64,000 bases of DNA from Eledone cirrhosa (Eukaryota): the NCBI GenBank assembly GCA_964016885.1, contig OZ024741.1, positions 96,596,001 through 96,660,000 on the forward strand, in the 5' to 3' direction. Below are positions 11,071-57,430 of the stretch, one piece after another. Each line of letters begins with the position of its first letter. The stretch's first letter is position 1. Made by a program: the position numbers and the translations under genes. The notes beneath the pieces were generated by a model, which saw only the letters and a list, made by a program, of their open reading frames with translations, was not told where the DNA came from and ran no database searches.

Positions 11071-11948
11071 CGAGGTGTGTCAGAAAGGTTCCAGGACTGA
11101 TGTCACAAAAGATTTATTTCAAACCCAAACTTCAAAGTAATCCCCCTGGAGTCTAATGCACTTTTCCATCCTTTTCTGCCACCGTTGCATGCACTCCTGA
11201 AAAGATTCTTCCGGGATCCTCCGCAGTTCCGTCGTCACGGCCTTTTTAATGTCGTCCACGTCTTTAAAACGGGTCCCCTTCGGGTCGTACTCGAAGATCC
11301 ATGACTCATCACCGGTGATGACTGTCCCTAGCAAGTCTGGTTCGGTTTCAAGACGGTCGAGGATGTCGTGGCACACTTGCATGCGTCGACCCTTCTGGTC
11401 ATCGTTCAGCAGTTTTGGCACTATCTTCGCGCAGACTTTCCGCATGTCCAAATCTTCAGTGAGAATCTTCCAGACGCTGTCCCGATTCATACCCAGCTCA
11501 TTTACCATCAGTCGAACAGTCAGCCGACGATCGCTACGCACCATCTGCTTGACGCGCTCAATGTTGACCTCACTCCTGCTTGTTGAGGGCCTTCCGCTCC
11601 TGGGCTCATCATCCACGTCCTCGCGTCCTTCTTTAAACCTCTTGCAACACTCAAAAACACGTGAGCGTGACATCGTCTCATCTCCATACACTTGCTGCAG
11701 CGGAATTTTACCCAACCGTACCAGAAACTTCAAGTTTGTTCGTTGCTCTGTGCTCATTGCTTGGCGACCTGAAACAGAGGACATGTATATAAAATTATGA
11801 AGAAAAAAGTTTGATCGCTGCAGAGCGCTAAGATTACAGTTACATACTCCAGGAGATTTAGTTTGAAGGAGAAAACCTTTAGTGTGAAGTTTGGGTTTGA
11901 AATAAATCTTTTGTGACATCAGTCCCGGGACTTTGCTGACACACCTCG
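11071..11948 (-). mobile_element. Mariner DNA transposon, internally deleted, with about 65 bp TIRs
   Basis: TIR CGAGGTGTGTCAG..GACTGATGTCACAAAAGATTTATTTCAAACCCAAACTTCA at both ends; TA flanks within (TA)n. Confidence 0.95.
11119..11757 (-). pseudogene. Mariner transposase with in-frame loss of most of the catalytic domain
   Basis: MSTEQRTNLKFLVRLGK, RSGRPSTS, KVCAKIVPKLL and ITGDESWIFEYDP, joined directly to C-terminal KGTRFKD..QGDYFE. Confidence 0.9.
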
Positions 11949-11950
11949 TA

Positions 11951-12048
<98 letters not shown>

Positions 12049-12553
12049 TATATACACTACAATATCAACCTCTACAACAGCTACCAGTGTCACAGCAATT
12101 GCCAAAACTATTAAAAGTATTACATTTAGAACGATCGACGTGACCAGCGTGACCATATTCTCTACCACAGCAAGCATCAACGATACAAGAAAGAAAGCTC
12201 TGGATGTTTTAATCATAGATACCACCAGATCGACGTAATGGACATACAATTAATGTTTATGTCATACACATGTTCCATGAGAGTTTATATGACATTGACT
12301 GTAGCAGCTATAATTAACATCACCAACGACAGCTCCATAACTGCCATACACTAATGTCATATATACTACCACAGCATAGCAACATTACGGAAGGCCAAAT
12401 CTATTATCACTAACACTACAAGATAATTACACTCCATGCTTACCCAGCACTACAAAACAATGAAACACTAATCATTCTAATACCAATAGCACCAGACCCT
12501 GACGCACCAAACATATGTATATTTTCTTCTTGTCAATTACAAAGACGACGAAT

Positions 12554-18551: not shown

Positions 18552-19010
18552 AGTTAGAATGAGAAATAAAAGATAAAATAGAACGATAGTATATATATAT
18601 ATATAGAACGATATGTATATATATATGTATATATATGTATATATGTATATATATATTAGAAAGTGAGGTTTTTTTTACAAAATGAAAAATAACCGAGGTG
18701 TCCTACACGAGTGGAAGTATAAAGAAAAAGGGATGAAATCGAAAATGCAACTGAAGTCTTATTTTTAAAAAAAATATATATATTTATTTATATATATATA
18801 TATATATATACATATCGTTCTATATCTATATATACTTTCGTTCTATTTTATCTTTTATTTCTCATTTTAACTTTTGATGAAGGACTAGTGTCCGAAATTT
18901 AAAGTAACCTTTCTTACTATATCAAGCATTAAAAAAAGATATTTCTTCATTGCACTGTGTCGTTCTCTTTTTTTTTTGTTGTCGCCGTTTACTTCTTGCA
19001 TATGTATATA
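18552..19010. mobile_element. Family D element with hammerhead-like core and a short inverted copy
   Basis: 18552-18615 is inverted relative to 18808-18873. TTGATGA AGGAC TAGT GTCC GAAA TTTAAA GTA at 18874-18906. Confidence 0.7.
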
Positions 19011-19282
19011 TATATATATATATATACATTGATAGATAGATATATATATTTCTTTATTTGCCACAAGGGCGCACAAGAAAATGGGACAATACAAAGTCAT
19101 GCCGGGGATTTTACATACAGTCGTGTAAAAAATATAAAAACAAACAATTACAACAATCGAAAACCGCAATAGGGGGGAGGCACAACAAATGGGTTTTTTA
19201 ATACCCCGTCGGTAGAACAACCCTCAACTCCAGGAGCGTGTTAAACAAGTTCTCCCTTCTTCCTTTTGCTCTCTTCTTTAAC

Positions 19283-22200
19283 CTACAGACTTATACACAG
19301 AGAAGGCCCAATCACTCGGGCCATTTTCGCTTCATTCACCCACCTTTCAGTAAATTTACTGGGGTGCAGTGCCCCTCTCTCCACTCTGATTCTCATTCTA
19401 AAGTGATACTTAAAGAAGGGAATCAATTGTTGTCCGGAGAGAAAGGCATCTGTCCTCAGTCCTCTCAATCTCGACCAACATATAACTTCTATCACCATAG
19501 CCACCGTACAGAGGAAAACCGCCTCTCTTTCGTTTTTGAAAGAGGCTGGCGGTTTGATCCTTACTATGGACTCTGCAGTCAATTAGATTTGTCCCATACG
19601 CGACAGCAGTTGTTCTGCATAGTTCCACAGGTCGGTTACACCCGGGCAGTGTACAATTGCGTGCAGAACTGTTTCAATGTCCTGCGCGCATCTTGGACAC
19701 CTCCTCTTGGAAGGATCCCTGCAGGGGCGTCCGTGTCTGTAGTTCTTGTCACGAACCGGTAGAGCTCCTCGGTAGCACTGCCAGGCCAGGGACCTCTGGA
19801 AAGTCCTACCAAACAGACTGGTGAGCTCATCGTCTTCGACGCCCAGAGTCTCTCCGAGCACGTCGTCGCCCTTGTAACGTACAATCCCTCTATAGAATGT
19901 GGAAGTGGAGTCTCCACTGATTGCTGCGCCCGCTTGCCTGAGGACTGTGAGCGCCTGAGCGCATTGACTGTGCCAGGCGCCCATCGTTTTCGCTCTTTTC
20001 TTGACCCAGGATGCAGCTCCGTCAGCGAGACGAGCTGTGGGAAAGCCTGTCTCACAAACGGTTCCCACTCCGGTTTGGGGGTGGTGAGGAATACCTGGAG
20101 ATGCTGCAGCCTCAGCGCATGTTTGCGCATTATCAGCCATGGCATTCCCAGCCCTCCGTTGGAAGGGTGCTGACAGTAGACGGATCTCCTCACCAGCGGA
20201 GCCTGCTTCTTCCACAGAAACTGGAAGAGAATGCGTTCCATCTTGGCGAGGTGTTCACGGGGACAAGGCACGACAGTCATGCGGTAGTAGATGACGGACG
20301 CTATGAAAGTGTTCGCCACCTCCGCTCAACCTTTCAAGGGCAGTTTTCACTCTGCCCACTTCTGGGTGAGTGCAAACACCTTGGCCGTGACCTCGTTCCA
20401 GTTTTTCTCCACCTGGAGGTCTGACCCCGAGCAATTTCACCGGTCCGTCCGTCCAGCCTCCAACGACGCTGTCGGACGTATATCGGTTTGCCTCTCCACG
20501 TACCGAGTTGCAAACCGACAGACTTGTCCGGGTTTAGTTTTGATCCCGTCAGCGTTTCGTATTCTTTCAGTAAGTTGCCGATCACCCCGATTTCCGAGGT
20601 GCTCGACACCATTACCGTCACGTCGTCGGCACAAGCCGACGCCGCTTTGCGCAGTCCCGGTTCTTGAGGGATGCCCTGCAACAGCTCCAATTTCCGCAGT
20701 AGTGGCTCTAGAGTCAATACTTACAGAATGGAGGAGAGAGGGCACCTCTGTCGAATGGAACGCGTGATTGCGAACGGCTCCGATGGGTAGCCGTTCACCT
20801 TGACCCTCGAGCAGATGCTGGTGTGTATCGCCTCGATACAGCCTCTGAACACGGGACCGAAACCAGCCGCCTTGAGAACCGCTTCCAGGTATCAATGGTC
20901 GACCCTATCGAATGCCTTAGACTGATCCAAATAGATCAGAGCCCCACCGAAGCCGAGTTTACTACCCACCCTCTCTATGATGTATCGCATGAGGTGTAGG
21001 TTGTTGTGAATGGACCTGGTCGGGGTTGCACACGTTTGCGCTTTCCCTACCAGGTTCTCGACGACAAGCGCCAACCTCGTCGCTAGCACCTTGACCAAAA
21101 TCTTTAACTCTGTGTTGAGCAGAGTTTTGGGACTGAAGTTGTTAATTTCGTCCCACTCGTCCTCGTCTTTCCTGATCAGCGTTACTACGCCCTTGCCTGC
21201 AGAACTGGGAATTCTCCCGTTCTGCTGCCAATTGCAGTAGACGACTTCGAGGACGCCAGAGAACAAGTCCGGCATGCCTATGTAAAACTCATAGGGTAGA
21301 CCATCTAGACCGGATGACTTGCGTTTCCCGCAGCGGCCCAGAGTGTCCCGTATCTCAGTGTCCGTGATTGGTCTATCGCAGAACTCGGCGTCCGTGTTCG
21401 AGAGACGTGGCAGGCCGATAAGGTATGAACTAAAGTCCATTGCCCCGTTCGTCTCACCGTCGTTCTGCTCAAACAGTCGCGCAAAGTGCTGCTGAAAGGC
21501 CGCGCACATTTGCTTGTGGTCAAGTAGCACGCGTCCGTTTTGATCTTTCAAAGACCGAATCGTGGACTTGTTGCCACTTTTTGCCTCCGCCACTCGGGCC
21601 CAGCTGACAGGTTTCGCTCCTTCGTTTCCTAGAGCACGTGTTTTGCTTCTGACCACGCAGCCTTCGTGTTTCGCATCGAAGAACTGGTCCAGTGCCGTTC
21701 TCGACGCTAACACTCTAGCCGCGTTGCCACTTCTAAGTGCCTCCTCTACCTTGGCTATTAGTTCTCTTTCTAGTTTGTTTTTCTCTAAGGTAAACTCTCA
21801 GCTAAACCCTATCAATTCTATTCTAATTGCTTTCTTGAGAGAGTACCACCATCTATTGTTGACGATGGTTCCTGTTAACTGCTGCTTGACTAGTCTACTT
21901 ACCCGTTCACTGTAAGCTTTACGTGCCGGCAACGACACGTTCAGCTTCCTATCGGCCAGTTGGAATTGGCCGATTAAAGTTTTGATGCTGTCGCACCCCG
22001 CTCTACTGAGACATGCTCCCACACATTCCCATCGTGCATCTAGGATACCATTCCAGTCCCCCACTAAAAGTAAGGAGCGAGACGTTCCCAGAAAAGACTC
22101 TAGACGCTTAAAGAAGTCTGGCCGTGATTGCGATTGCCCGGTCGGGGCATAAACGGCCACCAGTCTGAAGGCTCCACCTCCAATACTGTTCACGTCTAGG

Positions 22201-22485
22201 ACTACCAGTCTACCCTCCGGGTCCAAGTGTACTTGCTGTACTTCGATGTCCAGGTTCTTCCGAAACATGACAGCCACTCCACCCCCACCTTCTGGTTGAC
22301 AGAGAGATGCGTAGATCTCAAAGTCGTCGAAGATGGGGGTTAGTTGCTGCCTGTTGTGGATCCTGGACTCGGTGATGGCTATCACATCCATACCGTGGAC
22401 TTAAGGTCGTTTTTAGAAGTTGGCTCTGTTTTCAGGGCATCCCTAGGCCACGCATATTCACGCTTCCAACTCGTAAACTAGCCAT
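19283..22485 (-). pseudogene. Tx1 ORF2 (APE endonuclease and reverse transcriptase), several frameshifts and stops
   Basis: MASLRVGSVNMRGL, VYAP, GDWN, GLDGLPYEFY, LDQSKAFDRVDH, CADD, CPRC..H....C. Confidence 0.92.
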
Positions 22486-22530
22486 ATTGGGGAAGAAGAG
22501 TTGGAGAAAAAGGACGAAAGATGCACTTAC
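22478..22530 (-). other. Candidate 53-nt intron joining ORF1 to ORF2 in frame
   Basis: AG|GTAAGT..pyrimidine tract..GCTAG|T; the spliced codon AGT is in the ORF2 frame. Confidence 0.5.
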
Positions 22531-24498
22531 CTTTTCGTTTCCTGGAGATCGGGTTGTTCAATATCCATTTGGGTGCTGGATGAGGTGTAGGGTGGGGTGG
22601 GGAAACATTTTAACAGGACGCAGTTGATGGGTTTCTGGCAGGGGTTGCCTACGTCCTGTGAAAATTTATTTTTCAGGTCATTATAGGTTTCCATAGACAC
22701 CCTTATAAGTTTAAGGTGTGGAGACGATTCTGCTTTGACGAAAGTTTTGCCCTCCGTCTCCACTTTGAGGTTTTGGGAGATGACCGCCATCAAACTCTTG
22801 TTGTTTGCGTTTTGTTTTGTTGTTTTAGTTTGTTGTTCGTCCGGGAGTTTTCTTTTTATGGTGGGTGCTTGTGTTTGGGGTGGTGTTGGTGTTGGTTTTG
22901 CTGGTAGGGGGATGTTTGACTGTGGTGTTGTTTGTGTTGTTGTTTGTGTCTGTGGTTGTGTGTTGGTGTTGGTGATTGGAGTTTTGGGGATTTTGTAGTG
23001 TCTCTTTTTTTGTATTTTAGATTTCCGCGGCTCTCCCTCTTCTTCACTTAAAGAAGGAGAAGCAGCTTCATCCGTTGATGAATAATCATCATCAGGAGTG
23101 TGGGGTAGGGGTATGTTGTGTGGTGGTGGAGTTTTGGTGTGTGTGTTTGTGGTAGTGTTTGATGGAGTGGGATGGGGTGGGGATGTGTTCTTCAGGGGTG
23201 TTGTCTCTGTTTCTTCTGTTGTTGTTGGTTGAGTGGCTGTTTGCTTTGGTGTGGTTGCTCGTTTCGTCTTTTGTACTTGTGGTGGTGGTGGTTGTTTTGG
23301 TGTTGGTGTTGGTAATAGTGTCTTTTTAATGATGTTGTTGTGGTGTCTGTTGTGGAATCTGTGCTTGTTTATGGCTCTATCACTTGGACGCTAACGTCGA
23401 AACTGGAGAAAAAGCTATTTGGGGCATACACACGTATGCTCCGTGCTGCCTTAAACGTGTTTTGGAGGGAACACCCAACAAATAAGGATCTCTATGGCAA
23501 TATACCACCTATCAGCAGATCAATACGTGGACAGAGACTCAGATTTGCTGGCCACTGTTGGCGCAGCAAGGAAGAAATAGCAGGTGATGTGTTGTTATGG
23601 AGTCTATCTCATGGAGCAAGAAACGCTGGTCGTCCCAAGAAGACATACGTCAAGCAACTTGAGGACGATACTGGATGCACTGCGGAAGAACTGGCAAACG
23701 CTATGAGAGACAGAGATGGATGAAGGAAACGTGTCGTAGAAAGCCGAGCAAGCTCGACCTGATGATGATGATGTTGTGGTGTGTTTTTGAAGGACAAGAG
23801 GCTTTTAGGTGTGCTGTGCTGCCACAGCGAAAGCAATGAAATTTCCGTCCTTCTACCGAAATGTTTATTTTGTTGTTATCATCGATGATGACTCTTTCGG
23901 GTATTTTGGAGATTCTCTCCGGTCTCATTTGCAACATAATCTCCAAATCAGTACCCGCCCACCTTTGTCGAATAGACTTTTGCATCGAAAGAATCATATC
24001 AGTTTTGGCTCTACGAATCCAGCTAAGATCCACCAGATGTTAATGTTTGGTAGTATATTTTAAATTTTTATTTTTTGTGTCCTTTTCCCCATGTATGTAG
24101 GGATAAAGGTGAATGCTTTTGACACTATTGGTGTCTCAGAATGTTTTGGGGCGAGTGCCTCGCTTTTAAACAGTACGGAAACACTTCCGTACTGTTTTCC
24201 TCGTTGGAGAAATTCGATATCTGCTTGAATTTTTTTCAACGTATTTTCTATATATCCTTGGCTAAAAAATATCGGCTTTCTCGTGGTATTGGACACAGTC
24301 CTAAAGATAACTGATCTTCGAACTGTGTTTTCTTTTATTTCAGGGGGTGAGTTAATGCTACACCCACCTTTTTCTTCGAAAGTTACAAATTTTCTCCCTT
24401 GCTGGAGCATATCTCTTGCATTGGAGATGTCAAGATTTATAAAATCTTCTCTTTTGTTCACTGTTTCAGCGAAAGATATTTTTTTTGTGTGGTGTTGC

Positions 24499-24568
<70 letters not shown>

Positions 24569-24738
24569 ATCGTTGTTAGCCTCGGTGATGGAAATCTCAG
24601 TTCTTTGTCGAGGTGAAACTGTATGTGTAGATGTATCTGTGGAGTTGTTGATGTTGTTTTTTCATGTGTATGTATGTTAATGGGTTTAATTCCTGTGTTT
24701 TCATTTTTTTTTCTGCTTCGACGGTAGAAATTGTACAA
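22527..24738 (-). pseudogene. Tx1 ORF1 (gag-like, zinc knuckle), interrupted by an RTE insert
   Basis: Pieces 24060..24461, 23701..24033 and 22527..22793 are homologous to ORF1 of copy 2 (GKQYGSV/GQKYGTV, VEGR..C..CG...H....C, PH....V...TY..LK.KF..D.G). Confidence 0.8.
23340..23772 (+). mobile_element. 5'-truncated RTE-clade LINE nested in Tx1 ORF1
   Basis: VESVLVYGSITWTL..RMLR..LRFAGHCWR..GRPKKTY; (TGA)n tail; TGTTGTGGTGT on both sides is a probable target site duplication. Confidence 0.88.
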
Positions 24739-25062
24739 TGTTCAACTGGCAATATTTGTTGACAGTCGTATCTATGGCGACGTCCATAGTAGCAGAAGCA
24801 GATATAACGTTAAAATCTGCCTCTTTCTCTCTCTTTTCTCTATTGATGTTCTCCAGCGTTCCCTTCGTGTTATTCATGTTTTATAGTTGGCAAAATTTGA
24901 TATTTTAAAATAATTTTTAAATTAAATTTTCGCCCCTAAAGGGGCAAAAAATGGGATTACCACCCTGCCGACAATTCAGCTTGGGGGTTAATCTATAGAA
25001 TAATATCTTTTTCAAACAATTTGTTCTGTTTTTCGCATAGAAAGATAGATAGATAGATAGAT

Positions 25063-25130
25063 AGATATTTCTTCATTGCACTGTGTCGTTCTCTTTTTAT
25101 TTGTTGTCTCCGTTTACTTTTTGCATATGT

Positions 25131-25166
<36 letters not shown>

Positions 25167-25340
25167 GCAAAAAGTAAACGGAGACAACAAATAAAAAGAG
25201 AACGACACAGTGCAATGAAGAAATATCTCTGTTTAATGCTTGATATAGTAAGAAAAGTGACTTTAAATTTCGGACACTAGTCCTTCATCAGAAGTTAGAA
25301 TGAGAAATAAAAGATAAAATAGAACGATAGTGAGACGAAG
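25063..25340. mobile_element. Family D element: palindrome 25063-25228 around (TA)n plus a minus-strand hammerhead-like core
   Basis: Minus strand 25291-25259 reads CTGATGA AGGAC TAGT GTCC GAAA TTTAAA GTC. A stem I pairing is not obvious. Confidence 0.75.
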
Positions 25341-27297: not shown

Positions 27298-29428
27298 CTA
27301 TCCGTTAGGGTATAACGTGGGACTGTAATACAGGAAAGTTTTGTGCAATTTATGTTTACAAGCCGAAATTGCCTCAGATTTTTTGTTTAAGATGTGGTCT
27401 GTGGCGTAGAGTATTTCCAGGGCCTCAGCTGCGCAGAGGTCACGTGGTCTTTTATTTCCGTTATACGATCTAGCCCTAGCTAGGTACTCCCAGTGTAACT
27501 TATATTGGGTGTAGTTGTCTTTTAGACTCCAGATATAAGCTGAAAGTGACGTCATATTCCTTCTTAGAGGGTAACGAAAAGAATGGGTATGCATGTAAAG
27601 ACGCTGCTTGAAACTATTGGCGGTTAACCCTATGTAGGCCCTACGGGACGTGGGTGTTACAACCTTACATTTGTAGACAATGTTACTAGAGAGGCATTTC
27701 CCGGATAGGGGGCAATCAGCCCGATTCCTACAATTACAGTTAGTACTAACTACAGAGTTGCACGTGTTCCTACGGCTAGGTAGTTTAGCTAAATTTGAAG
27801 CTGTGATGTTATGTGCAAGGTTAGGAGTCGTAGAGTAAGACATTTTAGTAGTATTTCTATTAAAATTTTTACTATAATTATGTGTAGGGGGAAAATGCTT
27901 CGTAATAAGGGAAAGAAAGATCTTAGTTAATGGTGTGGCCACCTCCATATTATATGGTGGGTTAAACCAACAAATGCGACGGGATCTATTTCTACCATGT
28001 CTATTTTAGTACTCTGTATATGCTACCTTATCGACAAATCCACTTCGAGCAAGAGCCTCATTGTAATAAGTGGAATGGTCGTTGAAAATGCGCTCGTTGG
28101 TGGAAAGACGGGAAAGCCTCAACGAAACGTTTTTTGCCAGGTTCTTGGTTATGCTGGCAGGATGGTTGGAATGCTTACTTATGTAATTAAGCGTATCATT
28201 CGGCTTTCTATACGGGTAATACAACCCATTCAATAAATTGAGGGTAACGTCGAGGTAATTAACGACCGAGAGATTGGCCTCAACCTGTATAGAGAGGTTG
28301 AAGCCTTTAAAGAAGGCTGTGAGTTCTTTTCTGCACCTGTCGCAAGCACGAGGTCTGCACTTAGTCATGGTCAAAAGACCATCGTCACGGTACAAACCAC
28401 CGCCCGCGTTGGGGAATTCGTCCTTGATAGAGAAAAGAAGGAAAAGGCCAATAAGATCAGTAACCTTCGCAGAGTCACTGGCGCCCATACTCACGTCGAA
28501 TGGGGTACTATTGGATTTTTTAATCCAAATAGAGTCGTCGAAATTAATCACCGACTTTAGGTCATTAAGGATGACATCAACTTCGAAATCCTTAACCACT
28601 GTGAGTGTTTTAGCGAAATTGATAGCTCTAAGGAGAAGTGGTAAAGTGATGGATGGGTAGTAATTGTTGATGTCGAATTGGATAAAACGGCAATGTTCCT
28701 TGTTACATATGCCGTTGAAGCAATCAATCACCGCGAAAGAATTGTTCCACAGTGCAAGAGGGGCCAAACTTCTAATTTCAGGTATAATTCTATCAAGAAT
28801 CGTTTTACTAAGTCTACCTAAATCGGACTTCGTAGGGTTAATAAGCCGAATAGAGGGGTTGTTCGGAAAATTGGATTTGTGATCCTTCAGGGTAAATGTG
28901 GGGAGAGATAGGGTCCAGAGGTTCGGTCCGGTCCAGGATGTTGAGATCAGATGTGATTTTAAAGCCAGCATCGTTGATTTCATTGATGACACACCGATTA
29001 GTTTTACGGTAATCCTTAGTTACAGCATTATGTAGTAGTTGATGGTAAGTACTGCGCTCCACTTGATATAGGTTGCCAGTTTTGTCGGAATAGACGTGCA
29101 TGGCGTTAGAATCCTTAATAGAACGAATTCTATTCTTCAGGTCTTGCTGGAAGGAATTGCTCCTATTCCGAAATTTGATACTCCCAATGAGTTCCAAGAC
29201 ATCATTTTCGAAGGGTAGCAATGCTGGGTTCCACGGAGGGTTATTATAGGTTTTAAATCCAAATTTATCCTGATTGTTGTCTGCTTTTCGCGGATTATTG
29301 AAATAAAAGGCACGCCAACGCAACCTTTTAATGAACGCGTCTGTTTTCTGTATCAGGAGTTTTAGGTATGTTTTCCTGCTTGGTACGGGTATGTTCTTTG
29401 TAGAAGTATTCAGATGTTGTTTCTGCAT
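27298..29428 (-). pseudogene. PLE RT and GIY-YIG endonuclease; one frameshift (near 28890) and one in-frame TAA (28006-28008)
   Basis: STKNIP, DKTGN, RLINP.KSDLG, FIQFDINNYYPSI, MGA.DSA, GLYRDDGL, YLDVTL, WFNPPY, CNCRNRADCPLSGKC, IVYKC..YIGLT..FKQR. Confidence 0.92.
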
Positions 29429-29534
29429 GATGAATATACGTCAGTAGAGTGCTCAACCGAAGGAGCCAAATAGTAATAATAATAAAATAGTAATAATAAT
29501 AAAAAATATATATGTATATATATATATATATTTT

Positions 29535-31559: not shown

Positions 31560-32275
31560 ATACTTTAGAGCGGACCGGTCAAGTTCTTCTTGTGGGAGGG
31601 ACAGGTCTCACTGCTAATCTGCTACCAACATGTTTTCCGCGGGGGACTGCGCAGAACGACGAAACCGCTCTGCTCACAATCTTCCGAGCATTGCTAATGT
31701 GTGTAATGTTTGTCGAAAAAGAATTGTCACGTGTGGGACTGATCAGCATTCGGCCAAGTTCACCGTCAAGATCGCGCCGCCACCTTTTGGCTAGGAAGAA
31801 TAGGCAGCTTTTCTCGGTTTGGTGGTCGTAACAGCGAAAGATGTGTGGTGAGGTCGACTGAAAGAACCAAAGACAGGCACTTTTCTTTTCAGTCAAGCTC
31901 TCATCAAATCTTTCAAGTTCCACTTGGTAAGGAACGTTAGGGTCGACAAGAACATTTGGTAAAAATTGGATAAATATAGCAAGGATAGCTGCAGTGAATG
32001 GGCCTTCTCTAAGCATGCAATGTAGGCTGGAGAGTTCAGATATGAGCGATGCATCTTCTTAGGGTGCTCTTGACGATTAGAGTGGTTTTGGCTCTGTGGA
32101 GTCCCCGAATTATCTCTGGCTGATGCTCTCCCTATCATAGAATTCTGTTGTTAATTTTTTATTTTTTATTATTTTTTGTTTCCCTATTTTACACATTTTA
32201 TGTACCCCACCCGTTGTCCCTGTTCTTCTGTATTTGTCTTTATATTCCGGCTCTAGTGGCCAATAAAGCAACAAT
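31560..32275 (+). mobile_element. Tx1-clade 3' fragment, decayed
   Basis: Similar to the ORF2 C-terminus of copies 1 and 2 (CAQNDET, FFKFHL); 3' end GTGGCCAATAAAG. Confidence 0.75.
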
Positions 32276-32514: not shown

Positions 32515-32566
<52 letters not shown>

Positions 32567-32808
32567 TTTTCTTTATTAACCACAAGGGTTCACATAAAGT
32601 AGACATTAAGGACAGTACAGGACAATACAGGACGGTACAAATGGGCATTTCTGCGTGTAAAAAAACAGAGGTTGAAATAAAATAACAAAGAAAAATTCCC
32701 CAAAAGGGGGGAGACTTCCAAGGGACATTTGTGGAGAAAGCCCATTAAAAGACCACAGTGGCCCTGACCACCAGGGCAAGTGCCCTCTCCCAGTTTTCCA
32801 CCTTTAAT

Positions 32809-35800
32809 TTACAGACACATACTCAGAGAAGGCCCATTCATTCGGGCCATACTTGCTTCTCTCACCCATCTTTCAACAAAATGCTGGGAAGAGAGCACTT
32901 CCCTCTCTACCCTGATTTTCCTTTTCAAATGAAATTTGAAAAAGTTAATCAGGGCATCACCGAAGAGGTAAGTGCTCGTCTTCAGCCCTTTCAAACGTGT
33001 CCACCATACTATCTCTTTCGCCATGGCCACCAGACAGATAAAAACTGCCTGCCCTTCCAGGCTAAAGGAAGGGGGCGGGGCAATCCTCACGATGGACTCA
33101 GCTGATAGCTGGATCCGTCCTACACGTGACAGCAGATGTTCGACATAAACCCACAAGTCAGAAATGCTCGGACACTGGACGAGTACGTGCAGGACGGTTT
33201 CGTCGCCCTGCGCGCATCTCGGACATGCCCGGCTGACGGCACCTCCATGCCTGTAGAGTTTATCCCGAACTGGCAAAGCTCCTCGGTAGCACTGCCAGGC
33301 CAGGGATTTCTGGAAGTTGTCCATAGGCCCCGGCCCGAAAGTCCTTCCGAAGAGATTGGCTAGTTGATTTTCGTCGACGCCTAGAGTTTCTCCAAGTACG
33401 TCGTCGCTCTTCCCCTCCACTAATCCCCTATAGAACGCCAAGGTGGAGTTTCCACCGATCACATTGCCCGATTGGTCGAGGGCTGTGAGCGCCTGAAGAC
33501 ATTCCAGTCTCCAAGCGCTCCCTCTCGGTCTTCGCTTGACCCAGGACTGCAGCTCCGTCAAGGAGACGAGCTGGGGAAAAACGTGTCTTGCAAACGGCGA
33601 CCACACCTGATCACCGTCGAGGAAGAGGTGGAGATGTTGTAGCCTGAGCGCGTGTCTGCGCATCATCAGCCACGGCATGCCCAGCCCTCCACGTAGCGGG
33701 TGTTGACAGCAGATGGACCGCCTGACCATCGGAGCGCGTCCCTTCCACAAGAAGCGAAAGAGCAAACGCTCCAGCGCAGTCAGGCGGGGCTTAGGACAAG
33801 GTACGACGGTCAGGCGGTAGTAGATGACGGATGCGATGTACGCATTCGCCACCTCCGCTCGACCTTTCAGGGATAGCTTCCTCTCGGCCCATTTCTGGGT
33901 GAGAGAAGCCACCCTGCTCGTCACCTCGTCCCAGTTTTTGTCCGTCTGGAGGTCTGGACCGAACCAGACCCCTAGCAATTTAACCGGTCCGTCCGTCCAG
34001 CGCCCGACGACGCTGTTGGACGGCATGGACCTGCCTCTCCAGGTGCCGAGCTGCAGGCCCACTGACTTTTCCTGGTTGATCATTGCTCCTGTCACCGCTT
34101 CGTATTCTCTTAGTGTAGTGCCGATTGCCTCGATGTGTTTGGCGTTCGACACCACTACGGTGACATCGTCGGCATATGCTGACACGGATCTTCCGCATCC
34201 TAGTTCGCGCGGGACCCCCCTCAACGTCTCCAGTTTGTGCAGTAATGGCTCGAGAGTCAATACGTACAATAGGGACGAGAGGGGACATCCTTGGCGGACC
34301 GAGCGCATGATGTTGAACGGTTCCGAAAGGTGACCGTTCACTCTCACTACAGAGCAGATGTCGCTGTGCATGACAGCGATCTGAAGACGGGCCCAAAGCC
34401 AGCCGCCCTCAGGACTGCCGTTAGGTAACGATGGTCGACGCTATAGAAGGCTTTCGACTGATCTAAATTGATCAAAGACCCACCCGTGCCAGGTTCCCTA
34501 GCTACCCTCTCTACGATGTATCGCATGAGGTGGAGGTTGTCGTGGATAGATCTGTCGGGAATGGCGCATGTCTGTGCCTCTCCCACCAGACCACCAACGA
34601 CAAGCGCCAACCTCTTTGCTAGCACCTTGGCCAAAATCTTGAACTCTGTGTTTAGCAGAGTTATGGGCCTAAAATTATCTATGTTATCCCCCTTGTTCGG
34701 ATCCTTTCTCAGTAGCGCCACCGCTCCTCGGCTCACAGACCTGGGAATTCTCCCGTTCTGTTGCCAGTTGCAGTAGACGTCCGCCAAGAGGCCTCCGAAC
34801 AAGTTTGGCATTTGTACGTAAAGTTCATAGGGCAGACCATCCAAACCAGGCGATTTACCCCTTGTGCAACTAGTCATTGCATCCCGTACTTCAGCGGTTG
34901 TTATCGGCTTTTCGCAACACTCCGCCTCAGTGGCCGAAAGCCGCGGCTGTCCGTCGAGGTAGACACTAAAGTCCATCCCTCGATCCGGCCCGCCACTGCC
35001 CCCGAACAGTTGAGCGAAGTGTCGCTGAAAAGCTTCACACATTTGCCCGGGATCGAGTAGCATGCGCCCGTCGTGGTCCACCAAAGACCGGATCGTGGCT
35101 TTGTTGCCACGACGCGCCTCCGCCACTCGGGCCCATTGAACGGCTTTCGTCCCCTCGTGTCTGAGAGCACGCATCCTAGCTCTGACAACGCAGCCTTCGT
35201 GCTTTGCATTGAAGAATTGGTCAAGGGCCAATTTCGCCGCAAGTACGTCGGTCGCGATGCCTTTGCTAAGCGCCTCATCTAATTTTCTAACTAATTCTCC
35301 CTCTGCTCTATTTTTCTCTATTGCTAAAGTCTTACTAAACCTAATGGACTCTATTCTAATTGCTCTTTTCAGAGCAAACCACCACTTGTTGTTGACGATG
35401 GCCCCCGTCAACGCCCGCTTAACTAGTTCGCTAATCCGGTCTCTGTAGGCCTTGCGCGCTGGTAAGGACGCGTTTAACTTCCAGTAGCCGGGTCCTCGTC
35501 TATGAAGCCTATCTAAGTCAAGCACACAGATCACGAATTTGTGGTCCGTGTAGCTTACTATCTTGAATTGTGGACAGCCTATGCTAGACCTATCTATTTC
35601 CCTACAAAATACTCTATCTAGATATGATCTGGATGACCCTTTGCGATTTGTCCAAGTCCACATTGGTACATTCGGGAAATCCATTCGGTACCTGTCAGAC
35701 AGTTCAAAACGTCTGAGCAGGTTGGTGAGACTCTTGCACCCTCCTTCCCTATCCACTAATCCCACACAATCCCAGCGTGCATCTAAGATCCCGTTCCAGT

Positions 35801-36221
35801 CGCCCACTAACACTAAAGAGCGGGACGTTCCAAGAAAGGTCTCCAGACGCCGGAAGAAATCAGGCCGCCCTGCTCCTGTCGGGGCATAGACGGCCACTAA
35901 CCTGAAAGCTTGCCCGTCTCCGCTGGTCACGTCCAGCACCACCAACTTACCTTCTGGGTCCAGGAAGATGGCCCGTATGGCAAGATCCAAACCTCTCCGA
36001 AAAAGCACAGCAACTCCTCCCCCCGATCCCGGACGGCTGGGAGATGCGTACACATCGTAGCCGCCGAAGATCGGTGCGAAAGCCTGTGCTTCGGAGATTC
36101 TGGTCTCGCTGATGGCCACTACATCTATGTTTAGTGACCTGAGGTCGTTGAGCAGGTGGCCCTGCTTCCATGACGACCCCAAGCCACGCGCATTTATGCT
36201 GCCTATTCTGAGTGAGGTCAT
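32809..36221 (-). pseudogene. Tx1 ORF2 (APE, RT, Cys-rich C-terminus), broken by one small deletion near 34380
   Basis: ORFs 34347..36221 and 32809..34371: GSINARGL, SET, GDWN, YLDR, TDH, KSPGLDG, FRPITLLN, LDQSKAF, QGCPLS, YADD, CPRC..H....C. Confidence 0.96.
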
Positions 36222-36259
36222 GTTGAAAAGGAGTGGAAAAGATGGGAAAGACCACTTAC
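36208..36259 (-). other. Candidate 52-nt intron joining ORF1 to ORF2 in frame
   Basis: AG|GTAAGT..pyrimidine tract..CTCAG|A; the spliced codon AGA is in the ORF2 frame. Confidence 0.5.
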
Positions 36260-38114
36260 CTTACTTCTCGTAGGGGAAGGACGGTTTTTCCATCCTTTTC
36301 ACTGCTTGTGGCCTCCTCAGGAAGGATGTCCTTATAAATCCTCCTGGAGAGTGCTTGTCGGAAGTCTCCGATGTCTTTGGGGAATTTTTGTTTTAGTGTC
36401 ATGTACGTTTTCTGTGTGATGCGAGTGATTTGTATGTGTGGAGGTGGTGTGAATTTTGGGGTTGTTGTGTAGTCTTTTTCTGTGATGCTGGTGTTGTGTT
36501 GGATGTAGTGCAATAATTGCTTGTTGTTCAAATTTAATGCTGTGTAGTGTGTATCGTTTTGGTTGTTTTGTTTTGTTTGCGTTTGTTGTGGGTTTGCTTC
36601 TGTTTCGCATTTTGGTGACTTTTGTGGTGTAGGTGATGGTGGTGTTGGAGTTAATGATGGTGATGGTGTTGGTGTTTGGGTTGATGGGGTTGGTGATGCT
36701 GGTGTGGATGGTGGCATATCTGTCCTAACTTTTTTGTTTCTTAGTTTATTTGTTTCCCTCTGTATTTTGTTTTTGGAGGGGGAAGGAAGAGAATTTTTTC
36801 TTTTTTGGTTTCTTTTTTTTTTCCGGATATCGTTTCCCACTCCTCGTCGTCACAATCTGTCTCCAGTTGTGATAGGCCGGGGAGTGGAAAATCCTCCACA
36901 GCCGTTAGTTTTGGTTGTGGTGTGGTGGATGGTGTAGGCGCTGGTGCTAGTTCTGAAGCGTTGGGTGGTGGTGGTGTTGGTTTTGCTGGTGGTGGTAGTG
37001 GTGTTGGTTTTGCTACTGTTGCTGGGGTTGTTGCTGTTATAGTTGCTTCTGTTGTTGCTGCTACAGTTGTTGCTGGCATCTCTGCTACTGGTGGTGTTGA
37101 TGGTTGTGTCACTGGGGTGGGTAGGAGAGGTGGCCTCAACCTTTTTGCCTGAGGGCAGAAAGCCCTTAGGTGGGTTCCTTCACCACAAACGACACACCTA
37201 GGTCTTCTGCCCTCGACAATTACCGTGAGGTGGCTGCCGTCAGTGAGGTCTATTACCTCTGGGATCTCCTCAATGCTTTTTTGGTCCGCTTGGATCAGGA
37301 GCTCCATCCCAGATCCGGACCAGTTTTACTGCTTTTCTTTTGCTATTGTTATTATTTTCGTGTTGGCCTCGATGCCGGCGATGACAGCCGCTATTAGCCA
37401 GGGAATTTCGATGGCCGGTGGAACGTGGGTCACCCTGATCTTTACGAGTCTCTGGCCACGATAGCTTGGGACGAGTGTGAAGTCGTCACTTTTTAATGGG
37501 GCCATGGAGTGTTCTCTAGCCTCCTCTGGTGTTTCAAAGAACACATCCACGGTTCCATACTTTTGCCCACGTCCGATGTGGGTTTTTCTTGCCCACACAT
37601 GTCCCAAAGCTTTTTGGATTTGGGACTCGGATGCCCGTTCCACTCGGCGCGATTTTACATTTATTGTTCTATACGACACGGTGCACAGGCGCCGATGCTC
37701 CATTTTATTAGGTGGGGTGGGGGGTGGGGGGTGGGGGGGTGAGGCTGACCCTGTACCCATCTTTCTTTACCATTTGTTTGGCATTTTCTAAATCTGCTTG
37801 AGTTACCGTGAACGCTTCGAATTGTTTTGCTACGATGGCGAAACTGATGGTCGGTTTTATAATGTCATTGTTGTTGTTGTTGCTATCGTTATTTGTGTTA
37901 ATCTTAATTTTTGTTTCAGTTGTGGTTGTGGTGACGTCATTCGTCTTTGGTGCGGAAGAGTCCATTTTGCTTGATTTCATTTCGACATCACGAGTTAATT
38001 TAATTTTTTCTTCTTTTGTTTCTGTTGTCGCGGTGGTGGTGGGGGTGGTGGTTGTCGCGGTGGTGGTGGTGGTGGAGGCTTTAACACCTGCAGTCATTGG
38101 TAATGGCGGGAAAT
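36256..38114 (-). pseudogene. Tx1 ORF1 (gag-like, CCHC knuckle, Pro/Thr-rich linker); frameshifts at homopolymer runs and one stop
   Basis: CVVCGEGTHLRAFC; pieces 37708..38133, 37326..37760, 36741..37307 and 36256..36840. The start position is approximate. Confidence 0.85.
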
Positions 38115-38475
38115 GAATGTCTGCCTGAGACAAATTTAAAATATTGCTACTGCTTATATTTTTTTTGTGTTGGCAAACGTAGTAACATTTACAATGGTGG
38201 TGTCGGTGTGAGGTGTTATTTTGTGAGGAAGGCTTTCAGCTGCTTCGTGCAGAGGGGAATTAGCCATTTTTTTTCAAAGAAATTTTTGGATAATAATAAA
38301 AGTTAAAATTTTGGGCACAAGGCCCCAATCTTTTTGGGTGCCCTTTTCGGAAAACAATGTATGTGTGCTTATAAACAGTTAACAATAAAATTTTCCATAA
38401 ATGGCAATTTTTAACAAACGGAAATAACGAACCTTTGCGGAGCTCACGATGATACGATTTACTACGTAGGTCGCC

Positions 38476-38508
<33 letters not shown>

Positions 38509-38926
38509 TTTAAAAATAATATAATATATGAAAAGAAACAGACGATAACGGCGTTTCATGTCTTCTCATTAAACAAATGTTTATTTTGATTTTAATTGAA
38601 GTTATATGAATTAAAATAGCGGTGACAGACTTTAGAATTGGAATGATGTCAAAATAACGTAGATTCATATTAGAGGTTATTGGGGTTTTATGAATAGAGT
38701 AGAATGTGGAGAGAATAGAGGGTGAAAGTGAGAGAGGGGGTAATTTCAATAAAGTGAACGTTTTTATTCATTGCAAACATGAATCTTATCTATAATAGAC
38801 AGCTTAATTTAATAGCAATTTGCAGGGGCTAACTATCTGGTTATCAACAGTCTGTACAATTTTCTCTTGTCTATTTTATCTATCTATCTTTTTATTTCTC
38901 TCTTTCTCTCTCCATATATATATATA

Positions 38927-45109: not shown

Positions 45110-47200
45110 AATCTATGGAAGCTAAAAATTAAAAGGTTAAAAAATAAAAAAAATAAACAGGAAGGCGTATATAGGGGAAGGGGATACTAACAAATGGTAC
45201 GTCACATAGAATCATAGTGAATTGCTAGTTAGAATATTTAATTAGGTTTATAGTATTTAAATGTTTTTCTTATACGGTGATAACAAGCTATAATCAGTTC
45301 CTGTTTTTTATTCAATAAATCGTCCTTAGATTTAATAATTTCCAAGATCTCCCCGGAGCATAATCTGCATTCTCTCCTGTTCCCAAGGTATGGAGTTCTT
45401 TGCAGAATGGTATCCCACGATAGCTTAAAGTCTATCTTTTTCTTTTTATAGTTATTTACTGCTTCAGCTAAAGATGTGGTATTAGCTAGTTTAGTATTGT
45501 TAAAGCTACTGGAGTGTGCGTAATATTTTTTTCTTAAATGTGTTCGATGTAGATCCTATATATGATTTGTTGGAGTCAGTAGTAGACACAATGCATTTAT
45601 ATATTACATTATTAATCAAACAGTTGCCATTTAAGGGGCAAACGCTTCTATTTCTGCAATTACAACCATACGTAAGATGGTTGTTGGGGGTACCTACATA
45701 ATTCTCATTAATCCTTGAGCTGTTCTTATTGTAATTAATGTTAGAGAGCGAATGAGTGCTGCTTTGTGGGTGATTTAGTGCTGGGGTTGTATTGTGATTT
45801 TGTGTTATGTTGTTTTTGTGTTGTTGATTTGGGTGGTTGTGTTTTCCAGGTTGAAGGATTGTATTATTTGTCCTTTTAAAAGGTGCAGTCTTATTTAAAT
45901 TATGTTGTGGTGGTGTGATCATATTATTTTTAAATTTATAAATGTTGTAGTTGCACATTTTTTGTTGGAGATTGTTTGATGTAGAGTATGAGAATTTAAC
46001 AGTATACCTGTTAAATATTTGGTGGTATCTGTAGTTTGGTGGAAAATGTTTCTGTAGAATTTCGAAGAATTTTTGGGGGATTTGTCCAATAATTTGGAGG
46101 TTGAAGGGTGCGTTGTACCATGTTATGTTTCTTTTGCGGGTTTTAGTTAAGTTCTTATTTCCACTTATATAAATGTGCTGTGTTCTAGAAGAGTTCTTAT
46201 GGTTAGTACTTGTATTTGTGGAATTTGGTAAATTGCAGTGGTTGTATTTGGTGTTATTATTGGGTAGATTATGAGAGGTTGAATGTTTGGTAGTCATATG
46301 TGAGTTGTTAACATTGGTCATAGATCGTGTAGTAATAGTTGTTGTGGTTTTTCGGTTGTTTAGTGTGATAGAAATGACCCCATTAGGCATTTGTTTTTTG
46401 GTGTTTGTAGTTTTTGCTAGGTTTTGTAGTATGGTCCATAGTAGTGTTGGGGATATATGAAATTTTTTCTTTATATCCACTTCTAGTTAGGGCTTCGTTG
46501 TAGAAGGGTGCATTTTTATAAAATATATCTTCAATGGAAGATAATTTAGAAAGTCTAAGAGATATGTTATAAACTAAGTTGTTGAGTATAGAGCCAGGGT
46601 GGTTAGAGCGTGAATGTACATAGTATATATTCTGGTTGGGTTTGTGGTAAGGTTGATAAATATTCGTAGAGAGGTCTAAGGTAACGCCAAGGAATTAGCT
46701 ACTTTTGAGGTGTTTTCAAAGGTGATGTTAAGGTTGTAATAGTCCTTGAGGAATTTTGTAATTTGTTTTTTTGTTTTTCTCTATATTAAGATTGCTAATA
46801 AAGACCACCTTTAAGGTGGGGAAAAGAGGAATGAATATTATAGAGGAGAAATAGTCCAATGAGGTCCGTAACTTGACCAGAGTCCATGGATCCCATCGTT
46901 ATATCGAATAAGTTGTTATATGTTTATTATTTTTATTCAAGTATATATTTGTATAATATGGCTTCTGAACAATACATTGAAAAAATATTTACGTATAATA
47001 AAAGTTAAGAAAAATAATTGGTAGATAATCAGGAATCCACTTAGACAAACTGGTGTGAGATTGATGGAGGGAATAGTAATAATCGAAGGTATTCAAGATT
47101 TCAATCAATTATCCGATTTTAATACTTATTAGCATTGCATGCTTCCGTTGTTTGAGTGATAAACAAACTTTACAATTTCGAAGATGCTCTTAAAATATCT
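45110..47200 (-). pseudogene. Second, decayed Naiad-type PLE (RT remnant and GIY-YIG)
   Basis: RKRNITWYNAPF, IFNRYTVKFSYST, CNCRNRSVCPLNGNCL..VIYKC..YIGSTSNTFK in ORF 45506..46480; upstream FLGVTLDL and MGSMDS remnants. Confidence 0.85.
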
Positions 47201-55964: not shown

Positions 55965-57430
55965 TTTTTGTATTGGCCACTAATGTGGAAACATAAAGGA
56001 GAATATAAAAACAGAGACTGGGGATTTATATAAAACGTGTAACAAAAGATAACGGGTAACAATTAACAACAAATTAATAACAATACAATTCACCAATAGT
56101 GGTGAGTATCAGCCACAGGTAAGTTACGAGGCCCACAGATCTTAAAACGCCTTAATCTCCAAGAACACCATCGGAAGGCGCCTCTCTCCTCTCTAAACAG
56201 TCCAGCCTCCAGTCACATGGTTAGAGTAGGCCCATTCACACGGGCCGTACTCGCTACATTCATCCCTCTATTAATACATCTACTGGAGGGAAGCACTTCA
56301 TTTTCCACCCTTACCTTTCTTTCCAAGTGGAACTTGAAAATGTTGAAGAGGGTTTGGCCGAAGAGGAAAGCGTCTGCTTTCAATCGTTTCAGTCGTATCC
56401 ACTACACTACCTTTTTTCGTTACAGCCACCAGACAGAAGAGTACTATCCACCCTTCTCCGCCGAAATAAGGCCTTAGAGCGATCTTCACGGAGGACGCGG
56501 TCGAGAGTTGGATCCGTCCTACACGCGATAATACCTATTTGACAAATCTCCACAAGTCAGTAATGCTTGGACACTAAAAACGTTTGTGCAGAATGCTTTC
56601 ATCGCACATTGTGCATCTCGGGAAGGTCCGCATGACATCACTTCTGTGCCTATAGAAATTATCCATCGACCCAGGTTCGAACATTCTTCGGACCAAAGTG
56701 GTTAGATCGGTGCGTCGAAGCCAAAATTTTTCCGAAAACCTCGTCGCTCTTGCCCGCCACTAATCTTCTCTAGAAGGTTAGACTGGAATTTACAAGGGGA
56801 GGATGGGGTCGATGCCTGACGTTCTGGTGATAATAGATGGAGGACGCAATGTACGCTTTCGTCACATCTGCATATTTATGGGTGAGATTGGCCACCCTAC
56901 TTGTTATCTCATCCTAGTTCATACCCACCTGGAGGTCTGGACAAAATCAAACATCGAGCAACTTGAATTGTCCCTCCGTCCTGCTTCCGAGGACATTGTT
57001 GAAAGGCATGGAGTTGTCTTTCCCGGTGTCGGATTGCAAACACACCGACTTTTTCAGGTTGATCTTTGCTCCCTTCGACCTTTCATCTTCCTCTAAGTAA
57101 TTGCAACCACCTCGATTTCACCATCATGATGATGTCATTCGCATATGCCGACGCAGCCATTCCACGTATCAGTTTGAGCGGGTTACCCTGCAATTGTAGC
57201 TCGAGAGTCAATACGTTTAGAAGGACAGTACGCATCGAGCGCGTGATCTGGAACGGTTCCTATCGGTGGCTATTTACATTGACCATTGTACTGATGCTAC
57301 TGTGCATTGCAGCCATCCAGTCTCTGAAGACGGGACAGAATTCGGTTGCCTTGAAGACAGCCTCCTCCATTTATCTATGGAACACTTTCGAGTCCCATCG
57401 AAGAAGGTTTTACTCTCTACTCTGTCTATG
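55965..57430 (-). mobile_element. Tx1-clade ORF2 3' fragment, heavily decayed
   Basis: AYANDI (YADD region), LTLELQL, QTSRW and FKFHL similarity to copies 1 and 2; 3' end GTGGCCAATACAAA. Confidence 0.8.

Follow-up and report, generated by a model that had tools for sequence, protein, structure and literature searches.

The Tx1 clade of LINE retrotransposons, which includes Tx1 of Xenopus, Kibi, Koshi, Keno and the L1-Tx1 elements of Octopus vulgaris, is characterized by two ORFs, a CCHC knuckle in ORF1, an ORF2 with endonuclease, reverse transcriptase (RT) and zf-RVT domains, and insertion in repeats, all of which are shared by the elements described here. In O. vulgaris, 13 recently active L1-Tx1 families have been reported (PMC13282606); the main text of that report contains 0 occurrences of "intron" or "splic". 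The way in which LINEs express ORF2 from a two-gene RNA is understood only in part. Mammalian L1 and SART1, like the present elements, have a bicistronic RNA with a short spacer and an ORF2 with its own AUG, which in those elements is used by reinitiation or through an overlapping stop-start (PMC5972666), and in rat L1 the evidence of blots was against a fusion of ORF1p with ORF2p (PMC2241872). LINE RNA splicing has been described as harmful to the element; the human L1 products known as SpIREs were called dead ends (PMC5860796). In the literature searched, which was covered at the level of abstracts, no intron joining ORF1 to ORF2 of a LINE was described.

Here, we analyse the ORF1/ORF2 junction of two such elements from a 64,000-nucleotide stretch of DNA (the window). 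The reading that we favour, as a tentative one, is that a U1-type donor under selection defines a minimal, mostly retained intron, the occasional splicing of which, as we infer from sequence, would fuse ORF1 to ORF2.

Two Tx1-type LINEs in the window

The window is animal DNA with many microsatellites and transposon remains, among which we identified two full-length, decayed non-LTR retrotransposons, both on the minus strand (Table 1). Both have a separate upstream ORF1, a 3' poly(A) signal and a simple-repeat tail, and lack LTRs. In the ORF2 of copy 2, Pfam detected Exo_endo_phos (PF03372), RVT_1 (PF00078) and zf-RVT (PF13966), with the endonuclease at the N-terminus and the zinc domain at the C-terminus; the ORF2 of copy 1 is collinear with it, and L1 endonucleases were the best matches of the ORF2 endonuclease among solved structures. 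The motif CX2CX4HX4C is present in ORF1 of both copies, and zf-CCHC was detected in copy 1 only (Pfam E = 0.015, below the curated cut-off). The alignable ORF1 protein is 34-37% identical between the copies, and the closest named homologue, from Argonauta hians, shows 58-66% identity, so that the host is probably an octopod. We classify both copies as L1/Tx1-type elements, probably of the Tx1 clade on the basis of their architecture.

Table 1. Window positions of the two LINE copies and of the features at their ORF1/ORF2 junctions.
Feature	Position	Strand	Remarks
Copy 1, degenerate full-length Tx1-type LINE	19049..25040 (ends approximate)	-	68-71% nt identity to copy 2 in ORF2
Copy 2, second Tx1-type family	32516..38526	-	(ATT)n runs at both ends
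Copy 1 ORF1, middle part with CCHC zinc knuckle	23770..23985	-	37% identity to the corresponding copy 2 stretch, E 6e-17
Copy 1 ORF1, terminal open stretch ending ETKR-stop	22527..23390	-	TAA at 22529-22527
Copy 1 ORF2 (endonuclease + RT)	19283..22485	-	Broken: stops, frameshifts, ~280 nt deletion in the endonuclease region
Copy 1, 10-nt block AAG/GTAAGTG, consensus 5' splice donor on the ORF1 stop	22524..22533	-	Cut 22531/22530, phase 2
Copy 1, inter-ORF spacer	22486..22526	-	41 nt, 80% pyrimidine; no AG past the donor
Copy 1, ORF2 start codon	22483..22485	-	A at -3; inside the predicted intron; relatives have Met at this place
Copy 1, predicted 3' acceptor TAG	22478..22480	-	AG = bases 1-2 of ORF2 Ser codon 3
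Copy 1, predicted 53-nt GT-AG intron	22478..22530	-	In-silico join of ORF1 to ORF2 in frame; splicing inferred
Copy 2, donor block	36253..36262	-	10 nt identical to the copy 1 block by sequence comparison
Copy 2, predicted 52-nt intron	36208..36259	-	Spacer 34 nt, ATG at 36221, acceptor CAG in Arg codon 5

The surroundings of the two copies differ. A direct duplication of ~105 nt (18937-19041 and 25063-25166, in pieces 98% and 86% alike) flanks copy 1, which is also enclosed by inverted arms of 143 nt (18834-18976 and 25189-25331, 94% identical); the arrangement suggests that copy 1 inserted into a non-autonomous repeat and that its target-site duplication is unusually long. The (ATT)n runs that bound copy 2 lie at 32516-32565 and 38476-38526, and its family possibly targets (ATT)n, judging from one insertion per family, that of copy 1 lying inside another repeat. 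The ORF1 of copy 1 is split at about 23360-23770 by ~400 nt of foreign DNA, which by eye resembles the 3' end of an oppositely oriented RTE-type LINE. Other 3' fragments of Tx1-type elements, in which the junction is missing, occur at 31649-31946 and 56210-57072. Further elements lie at 11119-12249, 27298-29440 and 45506-46486; among these three is a mariner-like transposase remnant with HTH matches, and two, which lack Pfam support, are presumably Penelope-like by eye.

A consensus donor overlies the ORF1 stop codon

ORF1 of copy 1 ends in AAA AG/GTAAGT, with the donor G at 22530, and ORF1 of copy 2 in GTA AG/GTAAGT, with the donor at 36259 and the first AG ending at 36208. The initial annotation had held that copy 1 ends in AAA AGG TAA GT with the donor and phase of copy 2, that spacers of 41 and 34 nt place ORF2 in different relative frames, and that the first AG of copy 1 (22479-22478, in Ser codon 3) gives an in-frame join over a 53-nt intron, all of which our analysis reproduced. 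The relative frame of ORF2 set by the spacer is +2 in copy 1 and +1 in copy 2, and both joins are in frame, that of copy 1 reading on in silico into LRVGSVN. Relative to copy 1, the acceptor of copy 2 lies two codons later and its spacer is 7 nt shorter, giving the intron of 52 instead of 53 nt. A spacer length that breaks the frame had also been put forward as a refutation of the arrangement; this reasoning is invalid, since both splice sites lie inside coding sequence and the spacer therefore cannot break the fused frame. The splice would drop ORF2 residues 1-2 (copy 1) or 1-4 (copy 2) only, and the alignment of ORF2 to the L1 endonuclease begins at residue 5, past the removed residues.

Several features of a U2-type intron are present: AG/GTAAGT as the donor in both copies, 79-80% pyrimidine, and TAG or CAG as the first AG. 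Branch points usually lie 18-40 nt before the AG. In copy 1, branch-like A's at 22502-22501, a weak match, stand 23-24 nt before it. The weakness of the branch-point motifs in both copies (-23/-24 and -26) counts against a minimal intron, as do the purines standing between the pyrimidine tract and the AG in copy 1. The usual lower intron size in animals is 50-90 bp (PMC13644364), so that 52-53 nt falls at the low end of a range given for animals at large rather than for this host.

A second AG/GTAAGT lies at 35950, inside the endonuclease of copy 2, and is not kept in copy 1. In addition, the octamer GTGGTCTT starts the pyrimidine spacer in copy 2 (36255-36248) and in three distant outgroup loci (L053, L113 and L116, from the set described below); it may be an older spacer element that is independent of splicing.

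The donor block is conserved between diverged copies

The donor positions -3 to +7 are identical between the two copies (10/10 nt), whereas identity is 46.5% over the 187 aligned nt that precede them and 8/27 over the 27 nt just upstream of the block. No other identical run in the ORF1 tail exceeds 8 nt, and with the stop codon discounted the chance of its identity is 0.465^7 = 0.005. In the window, AGG-TAA-GT occurs at 6 of 3050 TAA sites. The conservation ends about where the register of U1 pairing ends.

As an outgroup, we used 120 metagenome loci (where the scan ended) that carry the L1/Tx1 endonuclease motif FLQETH, which is missing in the octopod group. A callable ATG and ORF1 end were found in 29 of them (19 after dereplication), and an ATG together with the motif in 80 (37 after dereplication); this outgroup is distant, bacterial genes make up by eye 2/19 and ~3/37, and some ORF1 ends are doubtful. 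GTRAGT over the stop was found at 0/19 outgroup ORF1 ends, and the whole arrangement likewise at 0/19 (upper 95% bound 0.15). Two loci count against a minimal intron: L113 ends in AGG TAA, with its first AG out of frame, and L095, which is not one of the 19, has GTAAGT over a stop.

Taken together, we consider it probable that the donor block is under selection. Selection on the whole arrangement had been proposed at the outset; the part of this claim that stands is the donor block, which is identical in the copies, kept in the family and found at 0/19 outgroup ends, while the splicing itself is predicted. Likewise, the view that the second family had acquired the arrangement independently applies to the acceptor only: the two families are homologous, so that the donor was inherited. 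The signal is best described as real, conserved and lineage-restricted, with a plausible function in splicing.

The same comparisons bear on an account in which splicing has no role. According to it, the block is a termination context (basic last codon, TAA, purine) that both families inherited, the pyrimidine spacer helps ribosomes that have terminated to reinitiate at the ORF2 AUG, and the donor-like appearance and in-frame AGs are by-products. Reinitiation or coupling is used by L1 and SART1 (PMC5972666). The ORF2 AUG has been preserved and has A at -3, and GTRA arises at 6/19 outgroup ends from a G-ending last codon and TAA or TGA alone, which also counts against a minimal intron. Pyrimidine-rich spacers occur without a donor in outgroup loci L053 (0.86) and L084 (0.80), so that such a tract does not by itself indicate splicing. 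At 15/37 outgroup ORF2 starts, the first AG past the ATG has the phase required, which gives a chance of 0.16 (about 1 in 6) that both joins are in frame and corrects the earlier estimate of about 1 in 9; moreover, the acceptor is known as sequence from two copies only, a point against the intron. However, termination-reinitiation leaves unexplained why the GTG past the stop is the same in both copies although the codons ahead of it and the bases behind it have diverged, and why the lengths of 52 and 53 nt match. Among outgroup pairs, both joins in frame with lengths within 1 nt occurred in 11/1369 (0.008), and within 10 nt at 0.06, these figures being post hoc. No RNA structure above that of shuffled sequences was found at either junction (z = -0.39 and -0.18), and, as the relative frames differ, the two copies cannot share a ribosomal frameshift. 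We regard this account as unlikely, though it is the strongest of the alternatives.

Genomic copies of the family mostly retain the predicted intron

Contigs of four of 11 public runs (1472, 75, 1621 and 6 contigs) were aligned at 80% likeness to positions 22150-22880 of copy 1, whose junction was the one compared; run X8 has no cover at 22475-22574. In run X1, majority variants mend ORF2, changing the stop at codon 18 to Trp and giving the family motif WKQG. Within 22478-22533, the majority changes among the best 40 of 193 entries of this run are three spacer substitutions (22486, 22491 and 22521), with no majority change at the donor or acceptor; absence of the donor from most copies, raised initially as a possible objection, was thus not observed among them. 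Donor position 22525 varies in 0/26863. A spacer longer by 1 nt accounts for 743/12212 depth units (6%).

The initial annotation had also based the terminal ORF1 frame on protein similarity between the copies. This holds: the ORF1 tails align with 34% identity over 67 aa (E = 3e-10). Furthermore, no X1 indel at a 3% share was found at 22525-22800 among the best 12 of 15 indel entries, so the frame is not an artefact of copy 1.

Run X7 comes from a second organism. Its diverged subfamilies can be aligned from the ORF1 side as far as 22524-22528, and the alignments then break off in the spacer: of the best 15 joints, 4 pick up again at 22524 or 22528, and two aligned pieces begin at 22525-22526. 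The spacers of these subfamilies stay pyrimidine-rich. One X7 contig has 11 intron substitutions, 9 of them to pyrimidines and none creating an AG, and in another the pyrimidine spacer differs and contains CTAAC, a branch-type motif. In one X7 contig, T>C at donor +6 speaks against the intron.

All four junction-spanning contigs among those listed (records 2 and 3 of X1, 12 and 13 of X5) keep the intron, and no joint removing 22478-22530 was found among the best 15 of 42. A form at a 3% share in X1 would have a depth of ~190 and would outrank the joints seen; as rare variants are lost from contigs, this is a soft bound. The intron-retaining form therefore dominates among genomic copies, which does not imply that the spliced form is absent. 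The ORF2 AUG and codons 1-4 are conserved in relatives although they lie inside the predicted intron, which counts against it; the Met start in relatives is partly biased, as gene callers favour Met.

Protein relatives

No protein with the ORF1 tail spliced onto the ORF2 start was found in the best 150 of 3009 representatives, which is weak evidence. In a search for fused proteins of 1093-3120 aa, 4 distant matches were obtained; the ORF1 tail query gave 0, and a further query gave 4 unfused matches. Relatives with DNA context were found neither in viral contigs nor, with the octopod-type pattern, in metagenomes. One protein, P0097 (Logan, 3 members), was considered as a spliced copy for its 121-aa extension and rejected: it reads through the spacer and keeps the Met, and looks like a deleted copy. 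P0097 has Gly-Glu 12 codons before the ORF2 Met, followed by a stretch rich in I, L, P, F and S; the equivalent in copy 2 is Gly-Lys 13 codons before the Met. Read from the protein only, this would agree with a third family in which a GTGAG donor covers a TGA stop.

Discussion

The minimal, mostly retained intron would work as follows. The unspliced RNA, which would also be the RNA that is copied, would yield ORF1p; ORF2p would be made from the same RNA by reinitiation at the ORF2 AUG, a mechanism proposed for L1 (PMC5972666). U1 would recognise the donor, and an intron at the lower size limit would be removed inefficiently, so that a minor spliced fraction would give an ORF1-ORF2 fusion protein retaining the whole endonuclease core. 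The ORF1 part could let the fusion join ORF1p particles on unspliced RNA, as Gag-Pol does with Gag. A more ambitious version, which we regard as doubtful, is that retrotransposition requires the fusion, which would assemble on unspliced RNA together with free ORF1p, the host spliceosome setting the ratio of chaperone to enzyme; the 52-54-nt intron of octopod Tx1 elements would then make a spliced equivalent of Gag-Pol.

Given that spliced LINE RNA is known to retrotranspose (PMC5860796), the dominance of intron-retaining copies counts against productive splicing of this minimal intron, and it fits termination-reinitiation. It also agrees with a reading in which the donor is a selected landing site of U1 snRNP that keeps the full-length RNA from being polyadenylated prematurely within the A-rich ORF1, splicing being absent or incidental. 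U1 binding blocks premature termination in Arabidopsis EVD (PMC5580714), the donor is the best conserved part of the junction, and six A(A/T)TAAA hexamers lie upstream of it in each copy (nearest at -140 and -279), with none in ORF2 until the 3' end. Such hexamers are nevertheless expected in A-rich sequence, and some may have arisen as private mutations in these decayed copies; nor does U1 protection predict the AG-free tract, the in-frame acceptor or the fixed intron length. It therefore appears improbable to us.

It is very improbable that splicing is the only route to endonuclease and RT, with ORF2 made solely as a fusion. Both families do join in frame; even so, splicing can hardly be the sole route because the ORF2 AUG is kept, with its N-terminal codons, across relatives and because intron-retaining copies dominate, and the failure to find a joined protein among the representatives searched weakly agrees. 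Under cis preference, obligatory splicing would give intronless new copies, yet the spanning contigs keep the intron. Efficient splicing with cis preference is unlikely on the same ground, because spliced L1 RNA can retrotranspose and yet the intron-retaining form dominates here. Ribosomal frameshifting is ruled out by the differing relative frames and GUG reinitiation directly past the stop by the frame of that GUG, which in neither copy is that of ORF2; leader trans-splicing is unlikely, the AG lying downstream of the AUG.

A conserved fusing intron, if true, would represent a new expression route and would tie the activity of the element to host splicing; it could also offer a one-step origin of single-ORF LINEs from two-ORF ones. 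The LINE routes described in the abstracts and passages covered are reinitiation, stop-start coupling and ORF1-deleting splices, and for no LINE did we find fusion of ORF1 to ORF2 by splicing described. The human L1 products SpORF2 and SpIREs resemble the present case in that the spliceosome acts on LINE RNA and that spliced RNA can retrotranspose (PMC5860796). In SpORF2, however, ORF1 is removed and ORF2 is left alone (PMC2896524), whereas the sites described here look selected and would fuse the ORFs. The Arabidopsis Ty1/Copia element EVD likewise has a conserved U1 donor and a mostly retained intron that sets the ratio of structural to catalytic protein; it is an LTR element with the opposite logic, in which splicing yields a short Gag and the unspliced RNA the fusion (PMC5580714). 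In foamy virus, as would be the case here, a catalytic protein comes from spliced RNA and the genome is the unspliced RNA (PMC3705302). Foamy virus Pol is nevertheless made without any Gag sequence (PMC3705302), whereas in the octopod elements it is splicing that would make the fusion.
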